Shown: piece by piece, positions 1 through 39,226 of the stretch
How positions within the stretch are numbered: position 1 is the first letter of the stretch
Layout: each line of letters begins with the position of its first letter
Assembly (NCBI GenBank): GCA_013388635.1
Contig: JACAEX010000080.1
Span: 5,803 to 69,802, forward strand
DNA from: Syntrophaceae bacterium
GTDB taxonomy: Bacteria; Desulfobacterota; BSN033; UBA1163
Direction: 5' to 3'
DNA: 64,000 bases
Made by a program: the position numbers and the translations under genes
The notes under the pieces: model-generated
Seen by the model: the letters and a program-made list of their open reading frames with translations, nothing else
Told to the model about the DNA's origin: nothing
Database searches by the model: none

Positions 1-1
1 A

Positions 2-505
2 ATCGATTCGATCGAGCATGGCTATTTTATTACCGATCGGGAGATCGATCTCCTGATCAAGAGGGATCGATGGCTCATTTTAACACCGAGCCCCTATCTT
101 ATGGAGGAACGATTGGAGGCCTTGCCCCTTGAGATGGCTGAGGCTTTCAGACGCGGTCAGCAGGAGGCCGGGGAACGCATGGCCGCTGCGATCAAGGGAG
201 GCGTGAAGTTTGCGGTGGGCAGCGACGCAATCCATGGCCGGCTCGCCCAGGAGATGGAATACCTTGTCAAATTAGGGGCTACGGAGAGGCAGGCGATCAT
301 CGCTGGGACCCGGGATGGAGCCAGGGTCTGCGGTCTTGAACAAGACATCGGAACCCTTGAACCCGGCAGGATCGCTGACATCCTGGCGATTGAGGGCAAC
401 CCATTGAGCGATATCCAGGCGCTTCAGAAGGTCAAAGCTGTGATCTGCAGGGGAAAGCTTTCTTATTCTCAGCAGGGGTGCAGGATGACCTCTCGGTCAA
501 AATGA
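2..505 (+). CDS. amidohydrolase-family protein, C-terminal fragment (5' end lies outside window)
   Basis: Frame is open from the window edge (IDSIEHGYFITDREIDLLIKRDRW precedes the tracked Met at 101). The C-terminal region resembles metal-dependent amidohydrolases (GSDAIHG motif). Confidence 0.5.
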   Translation: MDSIEHGYFITDREIDLLIKRDRWLILTPSPYLMEERLEALPLEMAEAFRRGQQEAGERMAAAIKGGVKFAVGSDAIHGRLAQEMEYLVKLGATERQAIIAGTRDGARVCGLEQDIGTLEPGRIADILAIEGNPLSDIQALQKVKAVICRGKLSYSQQGCRMTSRSK

Positions 506-545
506 GGGACGAGGGAGAATTTCAGGAGATCCAGAAAAAGAGGAG

Positions 546-1355
546 ATGATGGAACTGGAAATAGGCTTTACGGCCTCTCCGAAGCCGGTTGAGGAGTATT
601 TCAAATTTGCGGCTGACAACGGGTTCCCCCGTCTGGACCTGGGCTGTGAGAGCCCGGTCAATTTTCCCCAGACGTTTACAGCGCAGAGGGTCCGGAGGAT
701 CAAAAGACTGGCGGAGAAGCACGGGATCAGGTACGGGCTCCATTCCGCCTCCTTTGTCAATACGGCGGAGATCATGCCCACGGTCCGGAAGGCGTCCGAA
801 GAGCATCTGTTAGAATATATCCGGCTTTCAAAGGAGCTTTCGGCTGAGTATTGTGTGATCCATTGCGGATACCATTTCAGCCTGTTTAAGGAAGTGGTCA
901 TGGAGAACCTTTTGAGGACGTTGCGGGCCGCTGTCCGCCTGGCTGAAAAGATTCGCCTTCCGCTGGTCATCGAAAATATGAATGTGGTCCATCCCGACTG
1001 CGAAATCGTCTACCTTGGGGTGACTGTGGATGAGCTGGCCCAGGTTTTTGGAGCCATCCCCTCTCCCTATCTCGGGCTTGCACTTGATCTCGGTCATGCC
1101 AACCTGCTCCCCGGCGGAGCCGACCCATTCATCGAAACATTCCCGGATAAGATCTGCCATCTTCATATCAGCGATAATAACGGGGTACTGGACCAGCACC
1201 TCCGGGTTGGAGAGGGAAATATAAATTTTAAATCGATCTTTGGCCGACTTGAAGAAATCGGTTTTGCCGGGACCGCCACCTTAGAGGTTTCCTCTGATGA
1301 AGACCGGGTCGAAAGCCGCCGAAGACTCCTGAGCCTTTTAAACCCCGGTCAATAA
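546..1355 (+). CDS. sugar phosphate isomerase/epimerase (xylose-isomerase-like TIM barrel)
   Basis: 269-aa ORF with an RBS-like GGAG upstream. Typical AP-endonuclease-2/xylose-isomerase-like TIM-barrel motifs (HxxHxG-like CVIHCGYHF; ENM metal site VIENMN; LDLGHANL). Confidence 0.7.
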   Translation: MMELEIGFTASPKPVEEYFKFAADNGFPRLDLGCESPVNFPQTFTAQRVRRIKRLAEKHGIRYGLHSASFVNTAEIMPTVRKASEEHLLEYIRLSKELSAEYCVIHCGYHFSLFKEVVMENLLRTLRAAVRLAEKIRLPLVIENMNVVHPDCEIVYLGVTVDELAQVFGAIPSPYLGLALDLGHANLLPGGADPFIETFPDKICHLHISDNNGVLDQHLRVGEGNINFKSIFGRLEEIGFAGTATLEVSSDEDRVESRRRLLSLLNPGQ

Positions 1356-1372
1356 CCAAATCACAATTTGTA

Positions 1373-1401
1373 TTGACAGGCTTTTTCGATTTTGGTATAC
1401 A
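1373..1401 (+). promoter_or_regulatory. sigma70-like promoter (TTGACA-N17-TATACA) upstream of TRAP operon
   Basis: TTGACA at 1373-1378, a 17-nt spacer, then TGgTATACA (extended -10) at 1396-1401. It lies about 120 nt upstream of the dctP start. Confidence 0.4.
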
Positions 1402-1523
1402 AGCATGCAAAATTCAAGGAAGTTCCACTGGACGGGGTCAAAAAAATTTAGCAGCAGGGAGGGTCTTTTTTTTGTCCGGTCATCTTTTGAAGAAGGATGA
1501 CAATTCCGGAGAGGAGGAGAGAG

Positions 1524-2579
1524 ATGAAGAGAGAGTCAGAAGGATTTGCCGGGAAAGGTATTTTTGTCTTAGCCGTAATTGGTTTCATTGTCTTTGGCAT
1601 GACCTTTGGCTATGCTGCAGAACCGGCCAAGGGGAGATTTCCAAAGATGGAGATCAAGCTTGGCCATTCCGGCGTTGTGGAGATGTCCTATCATAAGGGG
1701 TGTGTCAAGTTTGCTGAGCTGATGAAGGAGCGGACGGACGGGGCTGTCACAGTCCATGTCTTCCCAGCGAACCAGCTGGGGAGCGAGAAGGACATGCTGG
1801 AGCAGGTCAAAAACGGCGTCATTCACATCTCTTTGACCGGTCCCAGCATGCTGGGTCAGTTCAAGGGCTGGGGGCCGATCGGTGTGCTCGGCATGCCCTA
1901 CGTTCTGAAGGGCAATACCGAGGATGAGCTTCGGCCCAAACTGATCAAGGTCGCACGCGGGCCCCTCATGAAGGAGCTGAATGAGCGGGCTGCGAAGGAG
2001 AGCGGGATCCGCATCCTTGACATGGGCTGGTGGTACGGGGAAAGACACCTGACCACAAAGACCAAACAGGTGAAAAAGCCTGACGACGTCAAAGGTCTGA
2101 AGATCCGGACCATGGATTCTCCCATGGCCAGGGCCGCGATGGCGGCACTGGGTGCGGCCACTGTCCCCATGCCTGTTGCAGAGCTCTACACCGCCCTTCA
2201 GCTTGGTGTGGTGGAAGGACAGGAGAATCCGCTGAACACGATCTATTCTCACAAGTTCTACGAGGTGCAGAAATACGTGGCGCTCACCGGTCATATGGCG
2301 ATGAACCTTGTCCTGGTGATCAATGATAAGTTCTACCAGAGCCTCTCCCCTGAGCTTCAGAAGATCTTTGTGAAGAGCATGGAGGATGCCGGAGACTTTG
2401 AGAGCGAGATGCAGATTGCGATGAACAAGAAGAATGCGCAGGACCTCAAGGACAAGGGAATGATCATCACGGCGGTCAACAAGGCCGAGTTCGCCGAGCG
2501 GACCAAGGACGCCTGGAAACAGTTTGAACCCGTTTTCGGAAAGGGATTCTACGAAAAGGTGGTCGAAGCTGCCAGGTAG
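1524..2579 (+). CDS. dctP: TRAP transporter substrate-binding protein DctP family
   Basis: Tracked ORF 1497..2579. The second in-frame ATG at 1524 has a GGAGGAG RBS 6-8 nt upstream. Signal-peptide-like N-terminus. DctP-family motifs are present (periplasmic SBP; FYEVQKYVALT tail typical of DctP). Confidence 0.85.
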   Translation: MKRESEGFAGKGIFVLAVIGFIVFGMTFGYAAEPAKGRFPKMEIKLGHSGVVEMSYHKGCVKFAELMKERTDGAVTVHVFPANQLGSEKDMLEQVKNGVIHISLTGPSMLGQFKGWGPIGVLGMPYVLKGNTEDELRPKLIKVARGPLMKELNERAAKESGIRILDMGWWYGERHLTTKTKQVKKPDDVKGLKIRTMDSPMARAAMAALGAATVPMPVAELYTALQLGVVEGQENPLNTIYSHKFYEVQKYVALTGHMAMNLVLVINDKFYQSLSPELQKIFVKSMEDAGDFESEMQIAMNKKNAQDLKDKGMIITAVNKAEFAERTKDAWKQFEPVFGKGFYEKVVEAAR

Positions 2580-2658
2580 GTCCTTACACGTGAAGGGGCG
2601 GGAGATGGCCGATCTTCCGTCCCTCTCTTTTTCTTCCCGATGGAGTCTGAACCCCCCC

Positions 2659-3141
2659 ATGCAGACCATCCGCTTCTTCGTGAAGTACTTTGAAGAGATC
2701 CTGTCCGGGGTCTTCATGGTTCTCATGTTTCTCGCCACCTTTGCCAATGTGCTGGCCCGATATATTTTTAACAGCCCCATCCAGTGGGCGGAAGAGTTTT
2801 CACGGTATGCCTTCATCTGGGTCGTCTTCCTGGGTGCAGTCGTCTGCAGCAAGCACAAGAGGCACATCGGGATTGACTCGTTGGTGAAGATCCTGCCCGG
2901 TCGCATCCAACCATGGGTGTATGTTGCCGCAGATCTGTTTACGCTTGCCCTGATGGTGATCATAATCTGGTATGGCTGGATACTCACCCGATCGGCCACC
3001 CAGATTACGGCGACCCTGCAGATACCACAATACGTCATCTACATCGTCGTCCCGTCCTCTGGAGTCTTGGGAATTTTTTATGGCCTGGGCGATTTCAGGC
3101 GCCATCTCAGGGAGGCCTTGGGAGAAAGGCAGGCGACCTGA
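2659..3141 (+). CDS. dctQ: TRAP transporter small permease DctQ family
   Basis: Tracked ORF 2524..3141. The likely start is the ATG at 2659 (MQTIRFFVKYFEEILSGVFMVLMFLATF...). It is about 160 aa with four hydrophobic segments. Its stop overlaps the dctM start (TGATG). Confidence 0.75.
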   Translation: MQTIRFFVKYFEEILSGVFMVLMFLATFANVLARYIFNSPIQWAEEFSRYAFIWVVFLGAVVCSKHKRHIGIDSLVKILPGRIQPWVYVAADLFTLALMVIIIWYGWILTRSATQITATLQIPQYVIYIVVPSSGVLGIFYGLGDFRRHLREALGERQAT

Positions 3142-4418
3142 TGATCTGGCTCTTCGTGATCATGCTCACGCTTTTTGTCATCAATGTGCCCATTGCGTGG
3201 TCGATGGCCATTGCGGCCACGGTCTACATGGCCTTCGGCCCCCATGTCCCGCTTCAGGGCATGGTTCAGCGGATGATCGGAGGGATCGATACCTTTCCGC
3301 TCTTGGCAATCCCCTTCTTCATCCTTGCGGGGAATTTGATGAATACCGGAGGGATCACTGATCGGCTGGTTCGGCTCGCAAGGGCTATGGTGGGGCACAT
3401 TACCGGAGGTTTGGCCCACGTGGTGGTGGTGACCAACATGATCATGGCGGGCATGTCAGGCTCAGGCGTGGCTGATGCTGCAGGCAGTGGTACGATTCTC
3501 ATCCCGGCCATGAAAAAGGCTGGCTATACCGTTCGTTTTTCTGCAGCAATCGTGGGCGCCGCCAGCACCATCGGTCCGATCATCCCCCCGAGTATTCCCT
3601 TTGTCGTCTACGGCTCGATCGCAAGCGTCTCCATCGGACGGCTTCTTTTAGGGGGGGCAGTCCCAGGGGTGCTGATGGGGATCATGCTGATGATTTTTGT
3701 TTATGTGATTGCCAAGAGGCGGAGGTATCCGAGCGAAAAACGGGCTACGTGGAAGGAGCTCGTTCATGCGGCACTCTATGCGATCCCGCCCATGGGGATG
3801 CCAGCGATCATCCTGGGCGGTATCATCTTTGGAGTGATGACGCCGACAGAGGCGGCAGCCGCTGGTGCAGCCTACGCCTTCATCCTCGGGTTCTTCATCT
3901 ACAGGGAAATCACCTTGGCTCAGATCCCAAGGATTGTCATCGAATCGGTCATGGGGACAGCCTCTATCATGATCATCATGTCCGCCGCACAGCCGTTCAG
4001 TTGGATCCTGACCTATGAGCTGGCCCCCCAGAAGGTCCTCGCCCTCTTTGAGAACGTTCAACTGGCCCAGTGGCAGATCCTATTGATCATCAATGGGGCG
4101 ATGTTCACCATTGGATGCTTTATGGAAAGCCTGTCAGTCATGATCATGGCAGTACCAGTGCTCCTTCCGCTCCTGGAGCATGCAAGAGTGAATCTCGTTC
4201 ACTTCGGGGTCTTCTTCGTCCTCAACTGCATGATCGCGGCGATCACCCCGCCTGTGGGCACTATGATGTATGTGGTCTGTTCCCTGAGCAAGACCTCGAT
4301 TGTCGAGTTTGCGATGGAAGTCTGGCCTTTCGTCATTGCACTGGTCATCGCACTGCTGATCGTGACCTATGTGCCGATTTTGTCCCTTTGGCTTCCCAAC
4401 CTGATCATTCCGGGATGA
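3141..4418 (+). CDS. dctM: TRAP transporter large permease DctM family
   Basis: Tracked ORF 2913..4418. The probable start is the ATG at 3141, overlapping the dctQ stop (MIWLFVIMLTLFVINVPIAW...). It is a polytopic membrane protein with the DctM signature spacing. Confidence 0.85.
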   Translation: MIWLFVIMLTLFVINVPIAWSMAIAATVYMAFGPHVPLQGMVQRMIGGIDTFPLLAIPFFILAGNLMNTGGITDRLVRLARAMVGHITGGLAHVVVVTNMIMAGMSGSGVADAAGSGTILIPAMKKAGYTVRFSAAIVGAASTIGPIIPPSIPFVVYGSIASVSIGRLLLGGAVPGVLMGIMLMIFVYVIAKRRRYPSEKRATWKELVHAALYAIPPMGMPAIILGGIIFGVMTPTEAAAAGAAYAFILGFFIYREITLAQIPRIVIESVMGTASIMIIMSAAQPFSWILTYELAPQKVLALFENVQLAQWQILLIINGAMFTIGCFMESLSVMIMAVPVLLPLLEHARVNLVHFGVFFVLNCMIAAITPPVGTMMYVVCSLSKTSIVEFAMEVWPFVIALVIALLIVTYVPILSLWLPNLIIPG

Positions 4419-4443
4419 AGATAAGAAAGGCCGCACCTCCCCA

Positions 4444-5178
4444 TTGAGCTGCGGACAGGAAAGGGATGTGAAAGCATCGACGATCCAAGAAAGAGCGGTT
4501 ATCGTCCCACCCAATTCGATCTCAGATCAGATCTATGAGGTTCTGAAGGAACGGATTTTGCTCGGCAAGATTGCCCCTGGAGAACGGATCATAGAGAACA
4601 GCATTGCTGAGAGTCTCAAGACAAGCAGGACGCCGGTTCGGGAGGCCTTCCAACGTCTCGTGCAGGACGGACTGGCAGAACGCGTGCCCCAGGGTGGCGT
4701 TCGGGCCACCATTATTACTCCGAGAATGGTCAGGGAGATATTTGGCATTCGAGCGGTATTGGAGGTTTATGCCGTTGAACTGGCGTGTGACCAGATTGAC
4801 GCAGAGACAATTCGTAAACTTAAGGAATTGGCCCGGCAGGCCCGAAAACTCCTCTCCTCGCCTGAGGCGAATCGTTTGGAGGAGTTGATCTCGCTTTGGA
4901 AGATCAATACTTCCTTTCATGAGACCATCTACAGGGCAACAGGGAGTGAATATCTTTTGAAATTAATAGATCAGCTGAACTGTCTGGTCAGACGTTTTCG
5001 ATTCCTCTCAATGAGAAAGACGAGGATACAGGCCTGGGATCAACATGAGCTGATCATCAGATACCTTGAGGATAGAAACAAGAGGGCCCTTGTCGAACTG
5101 ATGAAGGCCCATATCGAACACGCTGCGTCGGACACGCTCAAGGCGCTGGAAAATGATCGGTGGGAGAAGGACGTATAA
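4444..5178 (+). CDS. GntR-family transcriptional regulator (FadR/FCD C-terminal domain)
   Basis: N-terminal winged HTH (SISDQIYEVLKERILLGKIAPGERIIENSIAESLKTSRTPVREAF) plus an FCD-type all-helical C-domain. The tracked start is TTG, so the exact start is uncertain. Confidence 0.7.
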   Translation: MSCGQERDVKASTIQERAVIVPPNSISDQIYEVLKERILLGKIAPGERIIENSIAESLKTSRTPVREAFQRLVQDGLAERVPQGGVRATIITPRMVREIFGIRAVLEVYAVELACDQIDAETIRKLKELARQARKLLSSPEANRLEELISLWKINTSFHETIYRATGSEYLLKLIDQLNCLVRRFRFLSMRKTRIQAWDQHELIIRYLEDRNKRALVELMKAHIEHAASDTLKALENDRWEKDV

Positions 5179-5260
5179 TCCGGTTGATGATTTTTCGTAG
5201 AACTTTAGCTCCCCGATACCGAGCCGCTTCATCGCGCTCCTTGACAAAAACCTCAAATAT

Positions 5261-5274
5261 TGTTAACGTTAACA
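5261..5274 (+). promoter_or_regulatory. perfect 14-bp palindrome TGTTAACGTTAACA overlapping a candidate promoter of the por operon; candidate GntR operator
   Basis: TGTTAACGTTAACA is its own reverse complement and carries two GT-N-AC half-sites, as typical for GntR-family operators. A TTAACA(5269-5274)-N17-TAAAAT(5292-5297) sigma70-like promoter overlaps it. An alternative -35 TTGACA sits at 5241-5246. Confidence 0.35.
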
Positions 5275-5419
5275 CAATTAAGCTGCCTGAATAAAATATT
5301 GAGTGATATTCATGGGTTGTAATTCAACTTCTACTTGTGAAGAAATTTCATTCAGTACTTGAAAAGGTGGCCGGAATATTGTATAGTCCCTCTGTTTCTC
5401 AGGTTTAAGGAGAGTCGAG

Positions 5420-5968
5420 ATGATTGAGATTCGATTTCATGGAAGGGGTGGCCAGGGGTCGGTCACGTGTGCGGAACTGCTCGCTTTGGCAGCGATCGGA
5501 GAAGGGAAGTATGCTCAGGCCTTTCCGAGCTTTGGCCCGGAACGAAGGGGTGCTCCTGTGGTGGCCTTCTGCCGGATCAGCGATCAGCCGATCCGGATCA
5601 GGGCCAATATCTATGAGCCTGACATCGTCGTGGTCCTCGATCCAACTCTTCTGAAGATCGTCAATGTGGCTGCAGGGCTGAAACCCAATGGCATGGTGGT
5701 GACCACAAGCAAAGACAGCCCTGAGGTGGTGAAAGAGGCGTTGGGGATCAATAATCGAGTTGCCGTCGTGGATGCGATCAAGATTGCAATGGAGGTTCTC
5801 GGGGTCCCTATTACGAATACGTCGATGTTAGGATCTTTGACCCGCGCATCGAACCTCGTTCGAAAAGAGTCCTTTATCCCTCCTTTGAAGGAGCGGTTTG
5901 GCCGGATCGCTGAGAAGAATATGGCTGCCTTCGAGCGAGCCTATCAAGAGACCGTCCTCATTCAATAG
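5420..5968 (+). CDS. porG: pyruvate:ferredoxin oxidoreductase gamma subunit
   Basis: MIEIRFHGRGGQGSVTCAELLALAA... is typical of the PorC/PorG gamma subunit. RBS AAGGAGAG lies upstream. Confidence 0.85.
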   Translation: MIEIRFHGRGGQGSVTCAELLALAAIGEGKYAQAFPSFGPERRGAPVVAFCRISDQPIRIRANIYEPDIVVVLDPTLLKIVNVAAGLKPNGMVVTTSKDSPEVVKEALGINNRVAVVDAIKIAMEVLGVPITNTSMLGSLTRASNLVRKESFIPPLKERFGRIAEKNMAAFERAYQETVLIQ

Positions 5969-5993
5969 ATTTCTATCACAAGAGGTGAAAGGA

Positions 5994-6293
5994 ATGACAA
6001 AACCCGATTCGGAATGGAAGTGGAAGGAACTGCCAGAAGGAACAGTCATGCTGGAACCCGGAAACGCCGATCAATATCGGACAGGGGACTGGAAGACCCT
6101 CAAGCCGGTTCTGAATAAAGAGCTCTGTATTCATTGCGGACTGTGCTATATCTTCTGCCCGGACAGCTCCTATAATCTCGACGCAGAGGGATATTTCATC
6201 GTAAACCTTTTCTACTGCAAGGGATGTGGCATCTGTGCAAAAGAGTGTCCCACCGGAGCGATCACGATGGTGGTGGAAGAGGAGGAGAAATAA
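5994..6293 (+). CDS. porD: pyruvate:ferredoxin oxidoreductase delta subunit (2x[4Fe-4S] ferredoxin)
   Basis: The start is an internal ATG of tracked ORF 5898..6293 (MTKPDSEWKWKEL...). Two CxxCxxCxxxCP motifs are present. Its stop overlaps the porA start (TAATG). Confidence 0.85.
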   Translation: MTKPDSEWKWKELPEGTVMLEPGNADQYRTGDWKTLKPVLNKELCIHCGLCYIFCPDSSYNLDAEGYFIVNLFYCKGCGICAKECPTGAITMVVEEEEK

Positions 6294-7468
6294 TGGGAAA
6301 GAGAGTCGGAATGGAGGTTTCGATTGCCGCAGCCGAGGCAGTCAAACAGGCCAATGTGGATGTGATCTCAGCCTACCCCATTACGCCGCAGACCCACGTG
6401 GTTGAGCACCTTTCCGAATTAGTGGCGAACGGAGAGCTGGATGCGGAGTTTTTCTGCGTGGAATCGGAACACTCTGCCCTGAGCGTCTGTGTGGGAAGCG
6501 AGGCGACCGGAGCCAGGTCGTTCACGTGTACGAGTTCTCAGGGACTGGCCCTGATGAGCGAGATCACTTACATCGCCTCAGCTCTGAGACTCCCCATTGT
6601 GATGATCATTGCCAACCGGGCGCTTTCTGCGCCGATCAGCATCTGGAACGACCACAGCGATGTGATGTCGATCCGGGACTGTGGGTGGATCCAGTTTTTT
6701 GCGGAGAACGGGCAGGATGTCTACGACCACGTCTTCATCGCCTACCGATTAGCAGAGGACCGGAACGTTCTTCTCCCTGCCATTATCAATATGGATGGCT
6801 TCACCCTCAGCCATGTGATCGAACCCATCGAGTTCATCGAACAGGAGAAGATCGATCGGTTCCTGCCACCCTATCAGCCTGTTCACCGCCTCCATCCCGA
6901 TCGGCCAGTTTCGATGGGCGGGATCGCATTGCCCCCAATCTTTACGGAGACAAAGAAGGCGCACGAGGTTGCGCTTCAAGGTTCGATGCCCAAGATCTTG
7001 GAGACGTGGAAGGCCTTTGGCGATATGACGGGTCGGTATTACCAACCGGTTGAGACCTATAAGGCGGAAGATGCGGAGACCATCATGGTCATCATGGGAA
7101 GCTTTGGTGAGACCGCCTCTGCGGCAGTTGATTTGATGAGGGAAGAGGGAAGGTCGGTCGGGCTGGCGAAGATCAGGCTGTGGCGGCCCTTCCCCTTCGA
7201 GGCCTTTAAGCAGGCCACGCTCCATGCCAAGCAACTGGTGGTGATAGACCGGGCCATCTCCATCGGAGGGCCTGGCGGACCTGTGGCCTCTGAAGTGAAA
7301 GCCGCGCTCTATGGAGAGCCGATCCGTCCGGTGGTCTATAATTTTGTCGCAGGGCTCGGGGGAAGGGATGTCTCGCCTTCCGATTTTATCAAGATGGTGG
7401 ATAAGGCTGAAATTGAGATTGAGGAAGGGAACCGAGAAGGCTATGAGATTTACGGGGTGAGAGAATGA
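6293..7468 (+). CDS. porA: pyruvate:ferredoxin oxidoreductase alpha subunit
   Basis: [38 protein letters not shown]... is a PorA/VorA-type alpha subunit. The tracked ORF 6224..7468 has an upstream extension that I reject. Confidence 0.9.
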
Positions 7469-8403
7469 CAGAAAAGCTAAATGTTTTTGCGGTTCGAACA
7501 TTGACGCAGAAGGAATATTTTGCACCCGGCCATCGGGCGTGTCAGGGATGTGCAGAGGCACTGGCCGTGCGATTGGTTGCCAAAGCGCTGGGAAGGAATG
7601 TGATCATCGCCTCTGCTACAGGGTGCATGGAGGTCGTCTCGTCTCCTATTCCCTTTACGGCATGGAGAGTCCCATGGTTCCATGTGGCCTTTGAGAACGC
7701 CGCGGCTGTGGCCTCAGGGATTGAATCGGGTTTGAAGGTTTTGATGAGAAAGGGAAGGCTTCCGCGTAAAAAGATCGTGACCATCGCCCTGGCCGGTGAC
7801 GGAGGCACGGCAGACATCGGTCTTCAGGCCCTTTCAGGGGCCCTGGAGAGGGGCCATGACTTCATCTACATCTGCACCGATAATGAGGCCTACATGAACA
7901 CGGGAATCCAGAGATCTTCATCAACGCCTTTCGGTGCGTCGACGACCACCTCTCCCGCTGGGAAGGTGAAGATGGGTCAGATCACCTGGAAGAAGAACAT
8001 GCCTGCGATTGCAGCCGCGCACAACATCCCCTACGTGGCCACGGCCTGCCCGAGCTATCCGATCGATCTTGTCGAGAAGGTGAAGAAGGCGGCCAGCATC
8101 GAGGGGCCAGCCTATCTCCATATCCTTTCTGTCTGTCCTACGGGCTGGAGATCTGCACCCGAGCTTTCGATCAAATTGGGTCGGTTAGCTGTCGAGACAG
8201 GGATTTTCCCGCTCTACGAAGTGGAGCATGGGAAATATCACCTGAGCATCGATTTCCCTCGATTGAGGCCCATTAAAGAATACATCAGACTTCAGGGAAG
8301 GTTTCGACACCTGACCGAGGAGATGATCGGACAGATTGAGGAGCGGGTCCGAAAGGAATACGCGGAACTGAAGGAGAAGGCAGCAAAAGGAGTTGCGAGA
8401 TGA
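7465..8403 (+). CDS. porB: pyruvate:ferredoxin oxidoreductase beta subunit (TPP-binding)
   Basis: GDGG TPP-binding motif ([12 protein letters not shown]) and the cysteine cluster CQGCAE...C are present. There is an ATGA overlap with porA. Confidence 0.9.
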
Positions 8404-8888
8404 CACAATCGGAAATCGAAGCCATCATCGAACGGTATGGAAGAAAGGAATCTTCCATCCTTTCTATTCTTCAGGACATACAGACCAGGGAGAAATACCT
8501 TCCGAGAGAAGCCCTCGAGTATGTGGGCGAGAAACTCCAGATCCCTTTAAATAAGATTTACAGGATTGCAACCTTCTACCGGGCCCTGAGCCTGATGCCT
8601 CGGGGAAGACATGAGGTCTGCGTCTGTATGGGGACGGCCTGTCATGTTCGCGGAGCACAGAGGGTTCTTGATCAACTCAAACTGGAATTGGGCATCGCGC
8701 CTGGAGAGACCACAAAGGATTTAAACTTCACCCTCGAAACGGTCAACTGCCTGGGCGTATGTGCTGCCGGACCGGTTGTGGCGATCGACGGTCAATACTT
8801 TGGAAAGATGAATCCGACCAAGGTGGAAGGGACTTTAAAGCAGTTTCGTTCTGACAAGAAGAAGGAGGCCGCGGATGGGAAGGCTTAG
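8400..8888 (+). CDS. NuoE-like [2Fe-2S] thioredoxin-fold subunit (NADH dehydrogenase 24 kDa / HydC/HoxE family)
   Basis: Cys pattern CVCMGTAC...C...C with the NuoE fold. It is translationally coupled to porB (ATGA overlap) and to the following nuoF-like gene. Confidence 0.85.
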
Positions 8889-10746
8889 TTCTCCTCAGGA
8901 GTTGGAAAAATACAGGGAAGGGATCCGCCGCAGAAGAGACCCCCATCAGGCCTTCATCACGGTTTGCGGGGGAACGGGGTGTCATGCCTCAGGATGTCAT
9001 GCCGTGGTGGATGCCTTCAAAAAGGTCATTCAGGAGAAGGCCAAGGGCAATGGGGTGGGCCTTCGCGTGACAGGGTGTCACGGCTTCTGTGAAAGAGGGC
9101 CATTGGTGGTCCTTCATCCCCAGAAGGTCCTTTACCAGCGAGTCAAACCAGAGGATGCGCCAAAGATCTTTGAAGAGACGGTCCTGAATGGAAAGATTGT
9201 GGAATCCTTGCTTTATGAACATCCGACCACAGGGGAGAAGATCGTTTCGGAAGAGGAGGTCCCCTTCTACAAAAAACAGATGCGGATCATCTTCGGGAAT
9301 AATGGAAGTATCGACCCCGCTCAGATCGAGGACTATCTGGCGGTCGGAGGATATCAAGCCTTATGTAAGGCCCTTTTTTCGATGAAGCCGGAAGAAGTCA
9401 TTCGAGAGGTGAAGAAGGCCAACCTGAGAGGAAGAGGGGGAGGAGGATTCCCGGCTGGTCTGAAGTGGGAACAGTGCCGGAATGCGCCGGGTGAGATCAA
9501 GTATGTGATCTGCAATGCAGATGAAGGAGACCCCGGGGCCTATATGGACCGGAGCCTTTTGGAGGGAAATCCTCATAGCGTACTCGAAGGCATGATCATC
9601 GGGGCCTATGCGATCGGAGCCCATGAAGGGTATGTATTTGTCCGGCACGAATACCCGCTGGCCGTTGTGAATATTGGCATTGCGATCCAACAGGCCCGGG
9701 AATTGGGGCTTCTTGGAAAAGAGATCCTCGGATCGGGATTTTCGTTCGATGTTCAGATCAGCAGGGGAGGCGGGGCCTTTGTAGCAGGAGAATCGACCGC
9801 TCTCATGGCCACGATTGAAGGGAATGTGGGAGAGCCGAGAGCCAAGCACATCCATACGGTCATCAGTGGTCTCTGGGATAGGCCGACCAATCTGAACAAC
9901 GTGGAGACCTGGGCCAATGTACCCCTGATCATCGATCGGGGTGCTGATTGGTACACCCAGATTGGTACCGAGGGGAGCAAAGGGACGAAGATCTTCTCCC
10001 TCGTCGGTAAGGTGAACAATACCGGTCTGGTCGAAGTCCCCATGGGAATTACCCTCAGGGAGATCGTTTATGATATCGGAGGTGGCATCCCGGGAGGAAA
10101 GAAATTAAAAGCCGTGCAAACCGGAGGGCCATCGGGTGGATGCATTCCTGAGTCTCTCATCGATTTGCCTGTGGACTTCGATCGACTTACCGAAGTGGGT
10201 TCCATGATGGGCTCAGGCGGAATGATCGTCATGGACGAGTCGACCTGCATGGTGGACGTGGCCAAGTATTTTATGAACTTCCTCAAGGACGAATCGTGCG
10301 GGAAGTGTACCTCCTGCCGCGAGGGCACGAGACGGATGCATGAGATCCTGATGGAGATTACGGAGGGGAGGGGAACCCTGGACCACCTCGACCTTCTCGA
10401 GGAATTGGGCTGGGTCACTGCTGAGGCTTCCCTCTGCGCCCTGGGAGGGACAGCGCCCAATCCAGTCCTTTCCACCCTTCGCTATTTCCGGGATGAGTAT
10501 AAAGAACATATTCTGAACAAACGATGTCCGGCCAAGGTCTGCCGCGCTCTTCTGAAATACCGGATTCTTTCCGATGTGTGCACGATGTGCGGGAGGTGTG
10601 CGAAGGCCTGCCCGGTTGAGGCGATCAGCGGTAAGGTCAAGACAAAGAAAGAGAAGGGAATCCCTTTCAAGATCGACGAGCAGAAATGTATTAAGTGCGG
10701 GATGTGTTTCGAGTCCTGTAAATTTGAAGCAATCGAAGTCCAATAA
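8875..10746 (+). CDS. NuoF-like NAD(P)H-binding flavoprotein subunit (HydB/HndC architecture)
   Basis: 623 aa. N-terminal thioredoxin-like 2Fe-2S domain (CGGTGCHASGCHAV). NuoF core with FMN/NADH motifs (GRGGGGFPAG) and a 4Fe-4S cluster (ESCGKCTSCREG). Two C-terminal CxxCxxCxxxCP ferredoxin motifs. Confidence 0.85.
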   Translation: MGRLSSPQELEKYREGIRRRRDPHQAFITVCGGTGCHASGCHAVVDAFKKVIQEKAKGNGVGLRVTGCHGFCERGPLVVLHPQKVLYQRVKPEDAPKIFEETVLNGKIVESLLYEHPTTGEKIVSEEEVPFYKKQMRIIFGNNGSIDPAQIEDYLAVGGYQALCKALFSMKPEEVIREVKKANLRGRGGGGFPAGLKWEQCRNAPGEIKYVICNADEGDPGAYMDRSLLEGNPHSVLEGMIIGAYAIGAHEGYVFVRHEYPLAVVNIGIAIQQARELGLLGKEILGSGFSFDVQISRGGGAFVAGESTALMATIEGNVGEPRAKHIHTVISGLWDRPTNLNNVETWANVPLIIDRGADWYTQIGTEGSKGTKIFSLVGKVNNTGLVEVPMGITLREIVYDIGGGIPGGKKLKAVQTGGPSGGCIPESLIDLPVDFDRLTEVGSMMGSGGMIVMDESTCMVDVAKYFMNFLKDESCGKCTSCREGTRRMHEILMEITEGRGTLDHLDLLEELGWVTAEASLCALGGTAPNPVLSTLRYFRDEYKEHILNKRCPAKVCRALLKYRILSDVCTMCGRCAKACPVEAISGKVKTKKEKGIPFKIDEQKCIKCGMCFESCKFEAIEVQ

Positions 10747-10942
10747 AGTCAATGGTCGAAGGGTAACGGCAAGGAGGTCCGTTTCGTTAGGGGGTTAGGT
10801 TTTCAGAGTCTTTTAGCCGTAACCCATTCACGATATACGAAACCGGCTTTGTAACCATAACCCATTGACCATTTCGCTGTTTGTAGGTGACGAAATCGAC
10901 CCAATGACTCAATGATTTGTTCTTGATCAGGAGGAGCAGATA

Positions 10943-11659
10943 ATGATCCCCATTACGATTGATGGCCAGCCTGTTGAGGGAAAAGAGGGTGAGAATATCT
11001 TGCAAGTGGCACTCGATGCGGGATTTGATATTCCCCATCTCTGTTATAACGAAAATGTTAAGCCTTATGGCGCTTGCCGTCTCTGCCTGGTGGAGGTGGT
11101 CCGGAGAGGGAGGTCGAGAATGACCACTGCCTGCACCTATCCTGTCATGGAGGGGATTGAGGTGCTCACCCAATCGGAAAAGGTCTTGCGGGCTCGGCGG
11201 ATGATCATGGAACTTATCCTCGCCATGTGTCCGGGAGATAAACTGATCCAGGACATGGCGAAGCAGATGGGGGTTGAGCAGGTTCGTTTCAAGAAGGACG
11301 ATAATAAAGATTGTATCCTCTGCGGTCTCTGTGCCAGGGTGTGCGATGAAGTGGTGGGTGCCCATGCCATCAGCTTTGCCTTCAGGGGAGATCGGAGAGA
11401 GATGGTGCCTCCGTTTCTCGGGGAGGCGATGAATTGCATTGCCTGTGGAGCTTGCGTGGTTGTCTGTCCGGTGGATGTGATCCGGATGAAAGAGGAGGGG
11501 GATGAGCGGACGATCATCCGGTGGAAGCGGACCCTGAAGATGAAGCAGTGCAAGGTCTGCGGGAACTATTTTGCTCCCTGGTTTCAGCTGGAGAAGTTTA
11601 AAGAAAGGGCCAAGCTCCCGAAGGACTTTTTTGATGTCTGCTTCACCTGTCGGGGTTGA
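10943..11659 (+). CDS. NuoG-N-terminal-like iron-sulfur protein (2Fe-2S plus His/Cys 4Fe-4S and 4Fe-4S dicluster)
   Basis: 238 aa. A plant-type 2Fe-2S ferredoxin start (ITIDGQPVEGKEGENILQVALDAGFDIPHLCY...C...C) is followed by 4Fe-4S motifs (CILCGLCARVCDE; CIACGACVVVCPVD). It lacks any catalytic hydrogenase or FDH domain. RBS GGAGGAG lies upstream. Confidence 0.7.
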   Translation: MIPITIDGQPVEGKEGENILQVALDAGFDIPHLCYNENVKPYGACRLCLVEVVRRGRSRMTTACTYPVMEGIEVLTQSEKVLRARRMIMELILAMCPGDKLIQDMAKQMGVEQVRFKKDDNKDCILCGLCARVCDEVVGAHAISFAFRGDRREMVPPFLGEAMNCIACGACVVVCPVDVIRMKEEGDERTIIRWKRTLKMKQCKVCGNYFAPWFQLEKFKERAKLPKDFFDVCFTCRG

Positions 11660-11719
11660 CATCATCGACGAATTGGAATATAGTTATTTCAATACAGTTT
11701 ATCATAGGGAGTTGCAGGT

Positions 11720-12163
11720 ATGGTGTATGTGAAGTGGGAGCCTTTTCGGGACCTGATGGCCATGCAGGACCGGATGGCCCGACTCTTTGACGAGACGCTA
11801 TCCCGCATCTGGAAGGAGGAGGTTCCCCAGAGAGTCTGGTCTCCTCCGGTCGATATTCTGGAGGGGGAGGGCGAAGTAGTTCTGAAGGTGGATCTGCCCG
11901 AGGTCAACCAGAATGATATCGATATCAAGGTCGAAGAGGACACGCTGATCATTCAAGGGGAGAGAAAGTTCATCAAAGAGACATCCGCTGAGAATGTTCT
12001 CAAAATCGAAAGGCCATATGGAAATTTCCATCGGACCTTTTCCATTCCAAGAATGATTGACCGTGAAAAGATCAGAGCCGCCTATAGAGATGGTGTGCTC
12101 AGGGTTGTCCTGCCCAAGAAGACAGAGGTTCACCGAAAACAGATCCTCGTTGATGAGAGATGA
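11720..12163 (+). CDS. Hsp20/alpha-crystallin family small heat-shock protein
   Basis: 147 aa. Alpha-crystallin domain motifs (VDILEGEGEVVLKVDLPEV...DIDIKVEEDTLIIQGER...RPYGNFHRTFSIP). Confidence 0.85.
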   Translation: MVYVKWEPFRDLMAMQDRMARLFDETLSRIWKEEVPQRVWSPPVDILEGEGEVVLKVDLPEVNQNDIDIKVEEDTLIIQGERKFIKETSAENVLKIERPYGNFHRTFSIPRMIDREKIRAAYRDGVLRVVLPKKTEVHRKQILVDER

Positions 12164-12176
12164 CGGAGAAGGCGAA

Positions 12177-12204
12177 AGGGGCCTGAATCAGGGCCCCTTT
12201 TTTA
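12177..12204 (+). terminator. Rho-independent terminator after hsp20
   Basis: Stem AGGGGCC / GGCCCCT with loop TGAATCA, followed by a T7 run. Confidence 0.6.
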
Positions 12205-14798: not shown

Positions 14799-14893
14799 TG
14801 GCGGAAGTGCATGGGAATCGAACCCACCGCGGACATCTTCTGCCCGCCACTGGATTTGAAGTCCAGGAGGCCCACCAGGACCTAACCACTTCC
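14799..14893 (-). tRNA. selC: tRNA-Sec (selenocysteine tRNA, anticodon UCA)
   Basis: The minus-strand read is GGAAGTGGTTAGGTCCTGGTGGGCCTCCTGGACTTCAAATCCAGTGGCGGGCAGAAGATGTCCGCGGTGGGTTCGATTCCCATGCACTTCCGCCA (95 nt). Anticodon stem CTGGA/TCCAG with loop CTTCAAA gives anticodon TCA. Long variable arm (GCGGGCA-GAAGA-TGTCCGC). T-loop TTCGATT with a 5-bp stem. 7-8 bp acceptor stem and an encoded CCA. Confidence 0.8.
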
Positions 14894-17231: not shown

Positions 17232-18680
17232 CTATGCACGATGCGCTTTGCTCTCTGCGGTTTTTGCAAGGGCCTTTTCAATTCCGGCGGCTAAGAGAGG
17301 AATCTCTTCATCCGAAATCGTTCTCATGTCCAGGATCAGTCCGTCCTTGCTGATTCGGGAGATGATCGGAGGCTCGGCTTTCCTCAAACCTTCTTCGAGA
17401 CCGTTCACGGACAGATCAACGGGCTTGAGGCGAACGACGACCGTTGGAAGTTCCTGAAGGGGGAGAGCTCCTCCACCGACCTGAGAGATATCCTCCTTGA
17501 GGACCGGGGTTGTCTTCTGCTTAATCCTTTCTGACAGGCTTCTTAGGAGACGCCTTGCCCTCCTCTTCAGTACAGCCCGATCGATTTTCAACATTCGAAG
17601 GGTCGGGATTTCTTCCATCGCCATCTTTTCATCGAGGTAGAGGAGGAGTGTGGATTCGAGCGCAGCTAAGGTCAGCTTGTCGATGCGAAGGGCTCGGGTC
17701 AGGGGATTGATTTTGACGAGGTCTAAGATGGCCTTCTTCCCCAAGATGATTCCGGCCTGGGGACCGCCCAGAAGTTTATCGCCGCTAAAAGTGACCAGGT
17801 CCACACCGGTCTGGATCGCCTCCGGGACAGTGGGTTCTCTTTCCAATCCATATTGACTGAGGTCAAGAAAGCAACCGCTTCCCAAGTCGTGCATCACAGG
17901 GAGGTGATTCTCTTTTCCCAGTTGAACGAGATCTTGGAGAGGGGTATCGGCGGTGAAGCCCATCACCCTGAAGTTGCTGGTATGGACCTTCAGGAGCAAG
18001 GCCGTCTGGGGGCCGATCGCCCTCTGATAGTCGCCGATATAGGTTCGATTCGTCGTCCCGACCTCTCTGAGAAAAGCTCCACTCCGTTTCATCACGTCAG
18101 GGATCCGAAACGCCCCTCCGATCTCGACCAGCTCCCCTCTCGAGACGATCACCTCTTTTCCTTCTGCGATCGTATTGAGGGCCAGCAAGACCGCGCCGGC
18201 GTTGTTGTTCACCACCATGGCCGACTCCGCACCTGAGAGACGGCAGAGGATCCCTTCCACATGGGTATAGCGGCTTCCCCGATCGCCCCGATCGAGGTCG
18301 TATTCCAGATTGGAGTAACCTCTGGCGATCTCTATCATGTGCTGAAGCGCAGAAGGGGCCAGGGGTGATCTTCCGAGATTGGTGTGGATCACCACTCCGG
18401 TCGCATTGATGACGCGACAGAGCCGGGGCTGGATCTGAACGGTGACCTCCCTCTGGAAAAGGGGATAAAGATTCTCGAAGGAGAATATCCCATCGTCAAG
18501 ATCGGAGAGGTCTTCCGTTTTCAGGATCTCTGAACGGAGCCTTTCCAGTCCCTTTCGAACGGCCTCCACCACGACGGCTCGAGGATGGACCTTCAAAAGG
18601 TCAGCCATCTCTGGCCTTGAGAGGATTTCATCGACCTTCGGTATCTTACGAAGGACCTGTTGACGAAGGGAGGGAGACAT
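17232..18680 (-). CDS. selA: L-seryl-tRNA(Sec) selenium transferase
   Basis: 482 aa. SelA motifs are present (INATGVVIHTNLGRS; FSGDKLLGGPQAGII with the PLP lysine). The N-terminus SLRQQVLRKIPKVDEIL resembles E. coli SelA SLYSQLPAIDRLL. Its 5' end overlaps the 3' end of the upstream radical-SAM ORF by about 35 nt. Confidence 0.9.
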   Translation of the reverse strand: MSPSLRQQVLRKIPKVDEILSRPEMADLLKVHPRAVVVEAVRKGLERLRSEILKTEDLSDLDDGIFSFENLYPLFQREVTVQIQPRLCRVINATGVVIHTNLGRSPLAPSALQHMIEIARGYSNLEYDLDRGDRGSRYTHVEGILCRLSGAESAMVVNNNAGAVLLALNTIAEGKEVIVSRGELVEIGGAFRIPDVMKRSGAFLREVGTTNRTYIGDYQRAIGPQTALLLKVHTSNFRVMGFTADTPLQDLVQLGKENHLPVMHDLGSGCFLDLSQYGLEREPTVPEAIQTGVDLVTFSGDKLLGGPQAGIILGKKAILDLVKINPLTRALRIDKLTLAALESTLLLYLDEKMAMEEIPTLRMLKIDRAVLKRRARRLLRSLSERIKQKTTPVLKEDISQVGGGALPLQELPTVVVRLKPVDLSVNGLEEGLRKAEPPIISRISKDGLILDMRTISDEEIPLLAAGIEKALAKTAESKAHRA

Positions 18681-21879: not shown

Positions 21880-22722
21880 TTATGAAGTCCAGGGGTTTGG
21901 GACGGGCCGATTATACCCTTTCTGAGAGGCTAAGATGTCGAGATGGAGAGTAGCCACATCCTCTAAGATTGGTTCACATTCTTCGATCTTTCTCAGGTCG
22001 ATGGTCTTGATATATTGATGGCATTTTTCGCAAAGGTCGATGCGATAGGCTTCCTCCCCCTCGGCATAGAAGTATTGCAGGGAGCCCCGTTCTTTGTTTC
22101 CGCAGAAAGGACATGACAGTCTATCGATTCGCCACTCAAATCCGCAATAGGAGCAGAGGAGGTAACGTTTTCCTCCCTCGCCTTTCAAGAGAGCAAAGGA
22201 GGGTAGGGAACCACAGATCGGGCAGTGGCCTTTGAGCCAGGTTTCAGCATCCACTTCTTGACCGAGCCTTTTCACCCCTTCCTCAAGAGAGGGCTTCAAG
22301 CTTTCATGAAGAAGGAAGAGAAAGACCTTCCGATCCATTTCGAATTGATCAGCCACCTTTTCTCCTTCTATCTCTCCGGTGAACACCTTCTTCAGATCGA
22401 ATCTTTTTTGGCTGATAACCTCCCGGATCTTTTCCACCTGCTCAGCCATATGAGGGGTTGCCTCTTTTGCAATGTTGCAGAGCGAGTGAAATAAAAGAGA
22501 GGAGGCCTCAAGGTCCACCGGGAAATCCTTTCTTTCGAGCATTGAAAAGCCTTCCCTGGCCAACAGCTCCTTCCACTCCTTTTTGAGATGAACGGGTTCG
22601 ACTTTCAAGGAATCTTTGATCTTCTCCTGCTCTTCCCTGACTTGCTGGTAGAAGTTCAGGATCTCTGTGTAGCCGGGTCGCTTCTTTTTGAGATGCTGAA
22701 TCCTTTTTCTTAGCTTTTCCAA
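21880..22722 (-). CDS. fdhE: formate dehydrogenase accessory protein FdhE
   Basis: 280 aa with four CxxC pairs (CPICG...CSYCG...CPFCG...CEKCH), the characteristic FdhE arrangement. Confidence 0.8.
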   Translation of the reverse strand: MEKLRKRIQHLKKKRPGYTEILNFYQQVREEQEKIKDSLKVEPVHLKKEWKELLAREGFSMLERKDFPVDLEASSLLFHSLCNIAKEATPHMAEQVEKIREVISQKRFDLKKVFTGEIEGEKVADQFEMDRKVFLFLLHESLKPSLEEGVKRLGQEVDAETWLKGHCPICGSLPSFALLKGEGGKRYLLCSYCGFEWRIDRLSCPFCGNKERGSLQYFYAEGEEAYRIDLCEKCHQYIKTIDLRKIEECEPILEDVATLHLDILASQKGYNRPVPNPWTS

Positions 22723-23121
22723 AGAAACTCTCCTAACCTCCCTCTATTCCGCTCTTGACTTAAGGGGGGATGAAGGGGGGTCATGAAAGAAACGGGCTTG
22801 TTTCGGAACTTCCATACCCAAAACAAGCCCTTCCGTTTCCCCGTCCCCCATCGGAGACTGTGTTATAACTTGCCAGAAACCGTTTCCGTTGCCACACAGA
22901 AGAGGCGGTCAGGTGACGAAGCCTTAAGGCGGAAACCTCTTATTCGATCAGCTTCTGAGTCCCAAGCCGAAGAAAGAAATCGCATTTCCCACAAGGCCGA
23001 TGACCCATAACTTTAAATGACCGCATCCTAAGGCTGAGGATGCCTGACTGCCTCTCCCACCTGGACCAGCTCCCTATCACGATTCCGACAAAGTCTCTCG
23101 ATAGGGAGGAAGAGTAAGGGA

Positions 23122-38520: not shown

Positions 38521-38550
38521 AACAAAGAGTCGAGAGGGAGGGATCCATCC

Positions 38551-39222: not shown

Positions 39223-39226
39223 TTTC

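Follow-up and report, generated by a model that had tools for sequence, protein, structure and literature searches.

What kind of enzyme is encoded where the genes of a four-subunit pyruvate:ferredoxin oxidoreductase (PFOR) run directly into those of the flavoprotein half of an electron-bifurcating enzyme? The question is raised by a 64-kb stretch of contig JACAEX010000080.1 from a Syntrophaceae bacterium (the whole stretch is called the window here, and all coordinates refer to it), in which seven open reading frames (ORFs), all on the + strand between positions 5420 and 11659, follow one another in the order porG-porD-porA-porB-bfuC-bfuB-bfuA. In our judgment these genes probably encode, as a single operon, one cytoplasmic enzyme of seven subunits that belongs to the Por-Bfu type, a class (Por-BfuABCDEFG) that was predicted by Schut et al. 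(2022, Front Microbiol 13:946711; PMC9304861) with Dehalococcoides mccartyi 195 as its example.

The name, architecture, reaction and occurrence of Por-Bfu in Dehalococcoidia and "syntrophic Proteobacteria" were published at that time (PMC9304861) and the enzyme was mentioned again in 2025 (PMC12318220), so that the novelty implied by the original prediction for this locus, made from its sequence, was overstated. As regards the biochemical characterisation of Por-Bfu, the searchable literature offers only the 2022 prediction and the 2025 mention, and the locus is a well-preserved Syntrophaceae example of a class that was predicted in 2022 and awaits biochemistry; it opens no new question.

Seven genes in one operon

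The genes and the one long spacer between them are the following:

5420–5968, +: porG, PFOR gamma subunit, 182 aa; Pfam POR, E 6e-44
5994–6293, +: porD, PFOR delta subunit, 99 aa; two CxxCxxCxxxCP [4Fe-4S] motifs
6293–7468, +: porA, PFOR alpha subunit, 391 aa; Pfam POR_N and PFOR_II
7465–8403, +: porB, PFOR beta subunit, 312 aa; Pfam TPP_enzyme_C; ligands of thiamine pyrophosphate (TPP) and of the proximal [4Fe-4S] cluster
8400–8888, +: bfuC, NuoE/HydC-like, 162 aa; [2Fe-2S] cluster C1; Pfam 2Fe-2S_thioredx (PF01257), E 2e-49
8875–10746, +: bfuB, NuoF/HydB-like, 623 aa; FMN/NAD(H) site and ligands of B1–B5
10747–10942, +: bfuB-bfuA spacer, 196 nt; long imperfect hairpin, copy of a short dispersed repeat
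10943–11659, +: bfuA, short, like the N-terminal part of NuoG/HydA, 238 aa; Pfam Fer2_4 and two 4Fe-4S motifs, no catalytic domain

The overlaps that had been taken as the mark of a single operon can all be read in the sequence: the start of porA lies on the stop of porD (TAATG, in GAAATAATGGG), porA and porB share an ATGA (GAATGACA), as do porB and bfuC (AGATGACA), and bfuC and bfuB overlap by 14 nt (bfuB ATG at 8875, bfuC TAG at 8886–8888), while porG and porD are separated by 25 nt. A Shine-Dalgarno sequence of the GGAG type precedes each of the seven genes, bfuA having its own AGGAGG. A terminator scan found no terminator-like hairpin between porG and the terminator that follows the downstream hsp20 gene, and scans of the bfuB-bfuA spacer found neither a terminator-like site nor a promoter-like site on the + strand. 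With genes that overlap or abut, without an internal terminator or a promoter in the gap, separate transcription of the NuoEF-like genes is not borne out, and porGDAB-bfuCBA is, by its layout, a predicted single transcription unit.

The first four genes would specify a TPP-dependent PFOR of the archaeal, four-subunit type, as indicated by their family matches. Por models rank first in NCBIfam for PorG, PorD, PorA and PorB, and two of the four subunits score above the pyruvate-specific equivalog cut-offs: PorB with 430 bits against 405 for NF008819 ("pyruvate synthase subunit PorB") and PorG with 230 against 225 for NF006321 ("pyruvate ferredoxin oxidoreductase subunit gamma"). PorB carries the TPP motif GDG-x26-N-x4-N at residue 111 (GDGGTADIG...NEAYMN) together with Cys26/29/54/224, and the two [4Fe-4S] motifs of PorD are CIHCGLCYIFCP from residue 45 and CKGCGICAKECP from residue 75. 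The subunit set and the TPP and iron-sulfur motifs are those of stand-alone PorABDG enzymes (e.g., PDB 9bt4), from which electrons pass only to free ferredoxin, whereas here porB overlaps bfuC, and bfuCBA always comes next in the relatives.

The bifurcation-type core of BfuC and BfuB

To judge from their domains and ligands, BfuC and BfuB are the conserved FMN/iron-sulfur core of the electron-bifurcating enzymes HydABC, NiFe-HydABCSL, NfnABC and WorABCSL, the core by which the Bfu family is defined (PMC9304861). The HydB/HndC architecture that had been attributed to the NuoF-like protein agrees with its Pfam domains (an N-terminal 2Fe-2S_thioredx at residues 23–101, Complex1_51K, SLBB, NADH_4Fe-4S and two C-terminal Fer4 motifs) and with all of the ligands, these being C31/36/68/72 for B5, C475/478/481/521 for B1, and C569/572/575/579 and C605/608/611/615 for B3/B4; the FMN/NAD motifs GRGGGGFPAG and NADEGDPG are both present. 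Its best matches among solved structures are NiFe-HydB (7t2r_B, 794 bits), WorB (9mqx_B, 781), the HydB subunits 8a6t_B (736) and 7q4v_B (729), NfnB (712) and HydB of Thermotoga maritima (664), while the complex I subunits Nqo1 and Escherichia coli NuoF reach only 357 and 340 bits, a distance that supports the assignment to the bifurcating type.

The window BfuB also has the B2/Zn site, in which C458, T496, H545, C551 and C556 align without gaps with C438, C476, H525, C531 and C536 of 7t2r_B, the five-residue site described for the Acetomicrobium mobile enzyme (PMC9304861). The histidine of this site occurs in 1550 of 1558 BfuBs and is reported as absent from non-bifurcating homologues (PMC9304861). 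For comparison, a set of 80 related loci was gathered in a scan of one genome per species (BfuB 59–86% identical; loci are cited below by their L numbers) and searched with the window proteins, and His545 is present in all 80 of the aligned sequences; B1, B2 and most other BfuB ligands are likewise invariant, a few loci deviating at C31/C36 or having a gap in B3/B4. The threonine at the second position of the site (T496) is the state of about two-thirds of BfuBs and of the FeFe enzymes, in which the site binds zinc, whereas the NiFe enzyme has a cysteine there and its site was modelled as [2Fe-2S].

BfuC has the four ligands of the C1 [2Fe-2S] cluster (Cys76/81/117/121), and among solved structures it matches best HydC of bifurcating hydrogenases (8a6t_C, 7p5h_C, 7t2r_C) and WorC (9mqx_C, E 2e-38). 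The BfuBC core with all its cofactor ligands is therefore shared with NiFe-HydABCSL (7t2r/7t30) and FeFe-HydABC (8a6t, 7q4v, 7p5h), with BfuB scores of 794–664 bits. What differs is the third substrate, which is H2 in the hydrogenases, and their BfuA, which is long (571–692 aa), contains the His-ligated cluster and has at its C-terminus a catalytic domain or a remnant of one.

That the three genes are the NuoEFG module of respiratory complex I was considered and rejected: BfuB scores 464 bits against the TIGR01959 cut-off of 558.65, it carries the extra iron-sulfur domains, and BfuA has only 238 aa. The ORF annotation gave no genes of the nuo membrane arm within the window.

BfuA, a short presumed adaptor of the WorA type

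The 238-aa protein had been seen as the N-terminal part of NuoG/HydA with no catalytic domain, a description that holds in outline and needs correction in two points, as the His-ligated cluster is missing and a CxxC-x26-CxxC motif has been added. The top structural match of BfuA is WorA (9mqx_A, 247 aa; E 2e-44, residues 2–212). Its A1 [2Fe-2S] ligands are C34/45/48/64 and those of the [4Fe-4S] clusters (A2 and A4) C124/127/130/134 and C165/168/171/175; none of these twelve cysteines varies among the 22 Por-linked homologues compared, i.e., those with por genes at the same locus. The H-x3-C-x2-C motif of the His-ligated A3 [4Fe-4S] cluster of NuoG/HydA was not found in the BfuA sequence. The C-terminal zinc-finger motif (C203, C206, C233, C236) is kept in 21 of the 22; in its position this Cys4 motif takes the place of A5, as it does in WorA.

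The set of clusters is that of Type 2 Bfu members, in which A3 and A5 are missing (PMC9304861), and in its four Por subunits, BfuC, BfuB with the bifurcation-type signature, and short BfuA with only A1, A2 and A4 the locus equals the published Por-Bfu. It is also close to WorABCSL (Wor-Bfu of A. mobile, PDB 9mqx; PMC12318220), where BfuA is also short, without A3 and with a Cys4 zinc finger. The likeness ends at the C-terminus, since WorA continues in an alpha-helix that recruits WorS, whereas BfuA terminates two residues past its final cysteine; this fits the description of the Por-Bfu homologue of WorA, in which the zinc finger is retained and the WorS-recruiting helix is missing (PMC12318220). 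No WorS-like polyferredoxin stands beside the Bfu genes. The Por-linked BfuAs also make up a size class of their own, of 233–262 aa, against about 200–223, about 585 or 1084 aa in other contexts, and BfuA is presumed to be an adaptor that joins PorD to BfuBC.

Proposed reaction and its direction

That the diaphorase half of bifurcating enzymes is attached here to a PFOR, as the original prediction held, is supported by every available computational test. By analogy, the Por-Bfu complex would reduce NAD(P)+ and bifurcate electrons, because this is what the structures and assays of the NiFe-, FeFe-, Nfn- and Wor-Bfu enzymes indicate for the same core, and because Wor-Bfu has been found experimentally to need both NAD and ferredoxin (PMC9304861). 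The steps could be as follows: (i) the electrons of pyruvate decarboxylation would pass from the TPP site to the PorB cluster and then to the two PorD clusters; (ii) they would enter BfuA at the distal [4Fe-4S] cluster A4 and, by way of A2 and then A1, reach the FMN/B1/C1/B5 site of BfuBC; (iii) and finally, the four electrons from two pyruvates would be split there, a hydride going to NAD+ and two low-potential electrons leaving through B3/B4 to ferredoxin (Fd). The net reaction would be 2 pyruvate + 2 CoA + NAD+ + 2 Fdox <-> 2 acetyl-CoA + 2 CO2 + NADH + H+ + 2 Fdred, with neither acceptor reduced alone, as in Wor-Bfu; it would be reversible, NADH and Fdred being confurcated in the reductive direction.

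In Syntrophaceae that produce acetyl-CoA, the physiological role would most plausibly be that of a confurcating pyruvate synthase, the reductive role that was suggested for Por-Bfu by Schut et al. (PMC9304861). Half of the electrons of the synthesis would then come from NADH, and costly reduced ferredoxin would be saved. A Nernst estimate of ours gives, for about 0.1 mM pyruvate and 0.1 atm CO2, a rise of the couple acetyl-CoA + CO2/pyruvate from −500 to about −410 mV, close to −390 mV, the mean of NADH (−280) and Fdred (−500).

If this is true, a PFOR that bifurcates or confurcates would alter how electrons are balanced at the pyruvate/acetyl-CoA node, which is central in anaerobic metabolism: NADH could pay for part of the pyruvate synthesis, the oxidation of pyruvate would give NADH and Fdred in the fixed ratio of 1:2, and carbon assimilation from acetyl-CoA would take half its electrons from NADH and not from scarce reduced ferredoxin. 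This would be of relevance to energy-limited syntrophs, to Dehalococcoidia, and to the way in which Bfu enzymes bifurcate electrons with a single FMN; as to whether a PFOR truly bifurcates, the window offers no better test than cultured Dehalococcoides or Syntrophus would.

Several points weigh against such an enzyme. Pyruvate, with an E0′ of about −500 mV, can reduce NAD+ and ferredoxin uncoupled (PMC9304861), and thus bifurcation is thermodynamically unneeded in the oxidative direction. The physiological direction is unreadable from the gene context, which is a TRAP (tripartite ATP-independent periplasmic) transporter and a GntR regulator here and recR in the relatives. A structured spacer of 196 nt before bfuA is unusual, and this gene could be expressed separately. 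PorA and PorD lie below their NCBIfam equivalog cut-offs, which would allow another 2-oxoacid. Finally, that the subunits form a complex, that the enzyme is specific for NAD and that it bifurcates is in each case inferred, and the searchable literature reports no Por-Bfu enzyme that has been purified or assayed.

The least improbable alternative is that the seven subunits do form one complex, this being a simple, non-bifurcating pyruvate:NAD+ oxidoreductase in which the electrons of Por would run by way of BfuA to FMN and NAD+, and the ferredoxin branch through B3/B4 is vestigial or an optional side exit. We regard this as unlikely, even if pyruvate at −500 mV reduces NAD+ directly (Table 1 in PMC9304861). 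The ligands of B2/Zn, B3, B4 and B5 are invariant or nearly so in the 80 aligned BfuBs, including all 23 that are Por-linked, and this speaks for selection acting on the ferredoxin branch; the N-terminal 2Fe-2S and the C-terminal 2x[4Fe-4S] domains are missing in non-bifurcating HydB/NuoF homologues (PMC9304861); and Wor-Bfu, the nearest relative to have been characterised, strictly requires both acceptors although its donor is likewise of low potential (aldehyde at −560 mV, against −500 mV for pyruvate). It differs in that its catalytic module is a tungstopterin WorSL nanowire, while the module in the window is a TPP enzyme.

A precedent for such a simple enzyme is the NADH-dependent phenylglyoxylate dehydrogenase PadEFGHI (NF045762–NF045766), in which a PorGDAB-like 2-oxoacid oxidoreductase is likewise linked to NAD by an added flavoprotein. 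The PadE, F, G and I models are among the next-best NCBIfam matches for PorG, D, A and B (E 9e-57 to 1e-20), with all scores far under the Pad cut-offs. The NAD-linking subunit of this enzyme, PadH, is a single flavoprotein of another kind, unrelated to NuoE/F/G, and we know of no proposal of bifurcation for it.

The substrate of the Por module

A second alternative keeps the Por-Bfu architecture and changes the substrate, which would be mainly another 2-oxoacid, such as 2-oxoisovalerate, oxalate, or an aryl- or indole-pyruvate. The scores give it some ground: PorA reaches 489 bits where the pyruvate equivalog requires 550, and the top NCBIfam match of PorD (PorD_Arch) 109 where 120 is required; the models of 2-oxoisovalerate oxidoreductase (VOR), oxalate oxidoreductase and phenylglyoxylate dehydrogenase also score strongly; oxalate oxidoreductase ranks second among the solved structures that PorA matches; and a distant 2-oxoacid:ferredoxin oxidoreductase (OFOR, 27–32% identity) stands beside bfuCBA in locus L066. 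We hold it nonetheless to be improbable, as PorB and PorG pass the pyruvate cut-offs, the Por models come first for all four subunits, and the best structure for PorA is a PFOR (9bt4_B, subunit alpha) with E 4e-98, against 7.5e-73 for oxalate oxidoreductase.

As to the OFOR of L066 (JBDRSE010000355.1, 5137–10598), it has the order alpha-beta-gamma and lies directly upstream of bfuCBA, the identities of 27–32% being to PorA, PorB and PorG. A second distant PorA/PorB pair is found in L004 (11214–14657), downstream of the Por-Bfu operon of this locus, and other OFOR-Bfu combinations may thus exist.

Conservation of the Por-Bfu linkage

The linkage of the PFOR and bfuCBA genes recurs in other genomes. 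The full colinear order porG-D-A-B-bfuC-B-A is present in 18 of the 80 loci; in two more it is the same and incomplete (L003, where the contig ends early, and L027, with no PorB match above the coverage cut-off), and in another two it is permuted (porG downstream in L060, por after bfuA in L031). The resulting 22 Por-linked loci are assigned to Thermodesulfobacteriota/Deltaproteobacteria, Syntrophus, Dehalococcoidia, SAR324, Dethiobacter (Bacillota), UBP1 and one metagenome-assembled genome (MAG) of Pseudomonadota, which makes at least five phylum-level groups. This recurrence across several phyla puts the arrangement far beyond chance, and an absence of the operon in relatives is not what was observed. 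It persists as BfuB identity falls from 93% to about 60%, the relatives at 90–93% having recR-porGDAB-bfuCBA-hsp20. The window BfuB is 100% identical to a protein of an NCBI MAG labelled Syntrophaceae bacterium, and more than 100 metagenomic relatives of it are known at 85% identity or above.

In a neighbour-joining tree of the 80 sequences, the window BfuB groups with six loci, all of them Por-linked, so that the clade is Por-linked in seven of seven members; the NuoF-like subunit does not cluster with diaphorases whose partners lie elsewhere. In the same tree the Por-linked BfuBs as a whole make up three or more sub-clades, between which Bam-like and other contexts are interspersed. Among these contexts, the BfuB of Desulfosarcina variabilis has HdrA-like and MvhD genes upstream and an enoyl-CoA hydratase downstream, which is a Bam-like context, some Dehalococcoidia and Thermoplasmatales have a Glu_synthase-domain partner, and others a BfuA of HydA size. 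In the published BfuB tree the Por sub-clades are 35, 44 and 45, with mosaic contexts in clade 45 (PMC9304861), a description with which our interleaved contexts agree.

Compared with the Por-Bfu of Dehalococcoidia, the window BfuB is 57–69% identical and its host is an uncultured Syntrophaceae lineage; compared with the 12 sequences analysed in 2022, the present survey adds SAR324, Dethiobacter/Bacillota and UBP1, from which the Por-Bfu arrangement is seen to be more widely distributed than first reported.

In one relative, L009 (JBBIRM010000019.1, a Deltaproteobacteria MAG), the por, bfuA and hsp20 genes have about 74% DNA identity to the window, and there is no detectable DNA similarity over the region equivalent to 8510–9316, which takes in the C-terminal portion of bfuC and the 2Fe-2S domain at the N-terminus of bfuB. 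At the protein level BfuC is 60% and BfuB 67% identical, the Por subunits 80–86% and BfuA 81%, and the pattern suggests a local replacement or a rapid divergence of the mobile C1/B5 domains, and the retention of por, bfuA and hsp20 is consistent with BfuA travelling with Por.

Other candidate partners in the window

About 50 ORFs of the window were annotated, and two other redox enzymes could be conceived as the partner of BfuABC:

23873–26890, −: alpha subunit of a selenocysteine (Sec) formate dehydrogenase (FDH), with an in-frame TGA (HQARI*HSATV) that splits it into two ORFs
21880–23856, 17232–18680 and 14803–14893, −: FDH-associated genes, with an FdhB-like 4Fe-4S subunit and FdhE; SelA and tRNA-Sec nearby
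40281–42011, +: tungsten-type aldehyde:ferredoxin oxidoreductase (AFOR), in a separate GntR/TRAP catabolic island about 30 kb away

The FDH is the only one in the window and lies 12 kb from por-bfu on the opposite strand; its alpha subunit carries a twin-arginine (Tat) signal (MKITRRTFLK), and together with FdhE this makes it periplasmic, and hence unable to serve a cytoplasmic Bfu core. No hydrogenase was found in the ORF annotation of the window. FDH, hydrogenase and AFOR were all rejected as the true partner, the first being exported by Tat, the second not found and the third encoded in a distant operon.

That two separate enzymes are merely co-transcribed, an ordinary ferredoxin-dependent PorABDG and an orphan BfuABC whose catalytic partner (a hydrogenase, FDH or aldehyde oxidoreductase) is encoded elsewhere or which acts alone as an NADH:ferredoxin oxidoreductase, is very improbable: close BfuB relatives do have other partners (HdrA/MvhD of the Bam-like type in L039, Glu_synthase-domain proteins in L008 and L011, a HydA-sized BfuA elsewhere), the AFOR and Sec-FDH are at hand and 196 nt separate bfuB from bfuA, but the ATGA overlap of porB and bfuC, the porGDAB-bfuCBA order kept across phyla, the wholly Por-linked clade of the window BfuB, the AFOR lying in a different island together with a BfuA that has no WorS-recruiting helix, the periplasmic FDH, and the co-expression of the seven genes in D. 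mccartyi 195 cited by Schut et al. (PMC9304861), with similar levels of por and bfu across growth phases in microarrays, all speak for the single Por-Bfu enzyme.

Putative promoters, palindrome and upstream region

Two promoter-like sites precede porG:

5241–5274, +: distal promoter-like element; −35 TTGACA at 5241–5246, 17-nt spacer, −10 TAACGT at 5264–5269
5359–5387, +: proximal promoter-like site TTGAAA-17-TATAGT, 10/12 in the consensus scan, about 32 nt 5′ of the porG ATG

The −10 of the distal element is overlapped by a perfect palindrome of 14 nt, TGTTAACGTTAACA, at 5261–5274, which is the sole site in the 64-kb window to match the conserved 16-nt element TTAACGTTAACRCAAT (two overlapping matches against 0.14 expected). 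The promoter element TTGACA-N17-TAACGTTAAC is shared with relatives that have recR, and not GntR/TRAP, upstream: TTGACA-N17-TAACGKTAAC precedes porG in L001, L083 and L084, and the same with a 16-nt spacer in L085, the extended form conserved in these four loci being TTGACA-N16/17-TAACG(T/G)TAAC(A/G)C. In the more distant L002 and L009 the element is absent upstream of porG. An equivalent of the proximal site (TTGCAA/GTGAAA...TATATT) lies at the same position in L083, L085, L001 and L009. A function of the distal element as promoter or operator is inferred. The "long leader" of the earlier reading is better explained by these two sites, both conserved in relatives. A structured leader was rejected, as 5285–5422 folds no better than its shuffles (z = +0.17), and a search with Rfam at gathering thresholds found only the tRNA-Sec in the window and no riboswitch in the por leader.

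The palindrome had also been noted as a candidate operator beside a GntR gene, and of this claim the palindrome is borne out as a conserved feature of the por promoter in this lineage; the link to GntR is not supported. In the four close relatives that keep it, recR adjoins por, from which it follows that its conservation is independent of the neighbouring GntR; GntR or TRAP genes do not accompany por there, and a search of all 80 loci gave no GntR homologue in the vicinity of por. A role of the adjacent GntR as cognate regulator thus finds no support, though in this genome it could still have one. This GntR is of the FCD type, 28% identical to a second FCD-GntR in the window that also stands beside a TRAP system, and it more likely serves the TRAP and TIM-barrel genes. 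On a more tentative footing, and with less than even confidence, Por-Bfu could be the main or only pyruvate synthase of an abundant uncultured Syntrophaceae lineage, confurcating NADH and ferredoxin, with the palindrome marking a dedicated regulator other than GntR.

Positions 1–5178 contain the end of an ORF that is cut by the start of the window, the gene of a TIM-barrel protein resembling xylose isomerase, TRAP dctPQM and GntR/FCD. In L001, L002, L009, L028 and L083–L085, recR lies immediately 5′ of porG, preceded in L083–L085 by dnaX-ybaB, and recR was not found anywhere in the window; at least 5.4 kb with the TIM-barrel, TRAP and GntR/FCD genes stands in its place. This points to a putative lineage-specific insertion or rearrangement that ends just upstream of the conserved por promoter. 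The TRAP and GntR genes in the place of recR and the repeat-derived 196-nt spacer before bfuA are among the features by which the locus differs from the published Por-Bfu. The TRAP solute-binding protein was discarded as a clue to substrate or direction, its PDB matches being generic DctP/SiaP-type proteins, none specific for 2-oxoacids.

The bfuB-bfuA spacer and the downstream gene

The spacer between bfuB and bfuA contains an inverted repeat with arms at 10751–10787 and 10837–10873 (fold z = −2.45). About 95 nt of it (10749–10845) recur with 71% identity in an intergenic region at ~33529–33613. In most Por-linked relatives the spacer measures about 10–120 nt, and about 396 nt in L001. It was rejected as a conserved regulatory element, since the repeat is absent from the equivalent spacers of relatives and is a copy of a dispersed repeat, for whose nature a REP- or MITE-like element and a small RNA are candidates.

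11720–12163, +: hsp20, directly 3′ of bfuA

This gene has a promoter-like site of its own at 11656–11684 (11/12 in the consensus scan) and is followed by the first strong terminator 3′ of the operon, at 12174–12201 (11 pairs and a T run). Its adjacency to bfuA is kept in L001, L002, L009 and L083–L085, with no known functional link.

Other genes of the window

The catabolic island at 37876–48413 (+) begins with the second FCD-GntR and also includes an RraA-like aldolase, an Ldh_2-family dehydrogenase, the AFOR, a short-chain dehydrogenase/reductase (SDR), a creatininase-family protein, a zinc-dependent alcohol dehydrogenase (Zn-ADH) and the second TRAP transporter. At 54033–58018 (−) are a GlcD-like FAD-linked oxidase and a CCG/4Fe-4S protein (GlcF/LldF-like) with an adjoining HMGL-like enzyme, and these genes may encode a dehydrogenase of the lactate or glycolate type that feeds the pyruvate pool.

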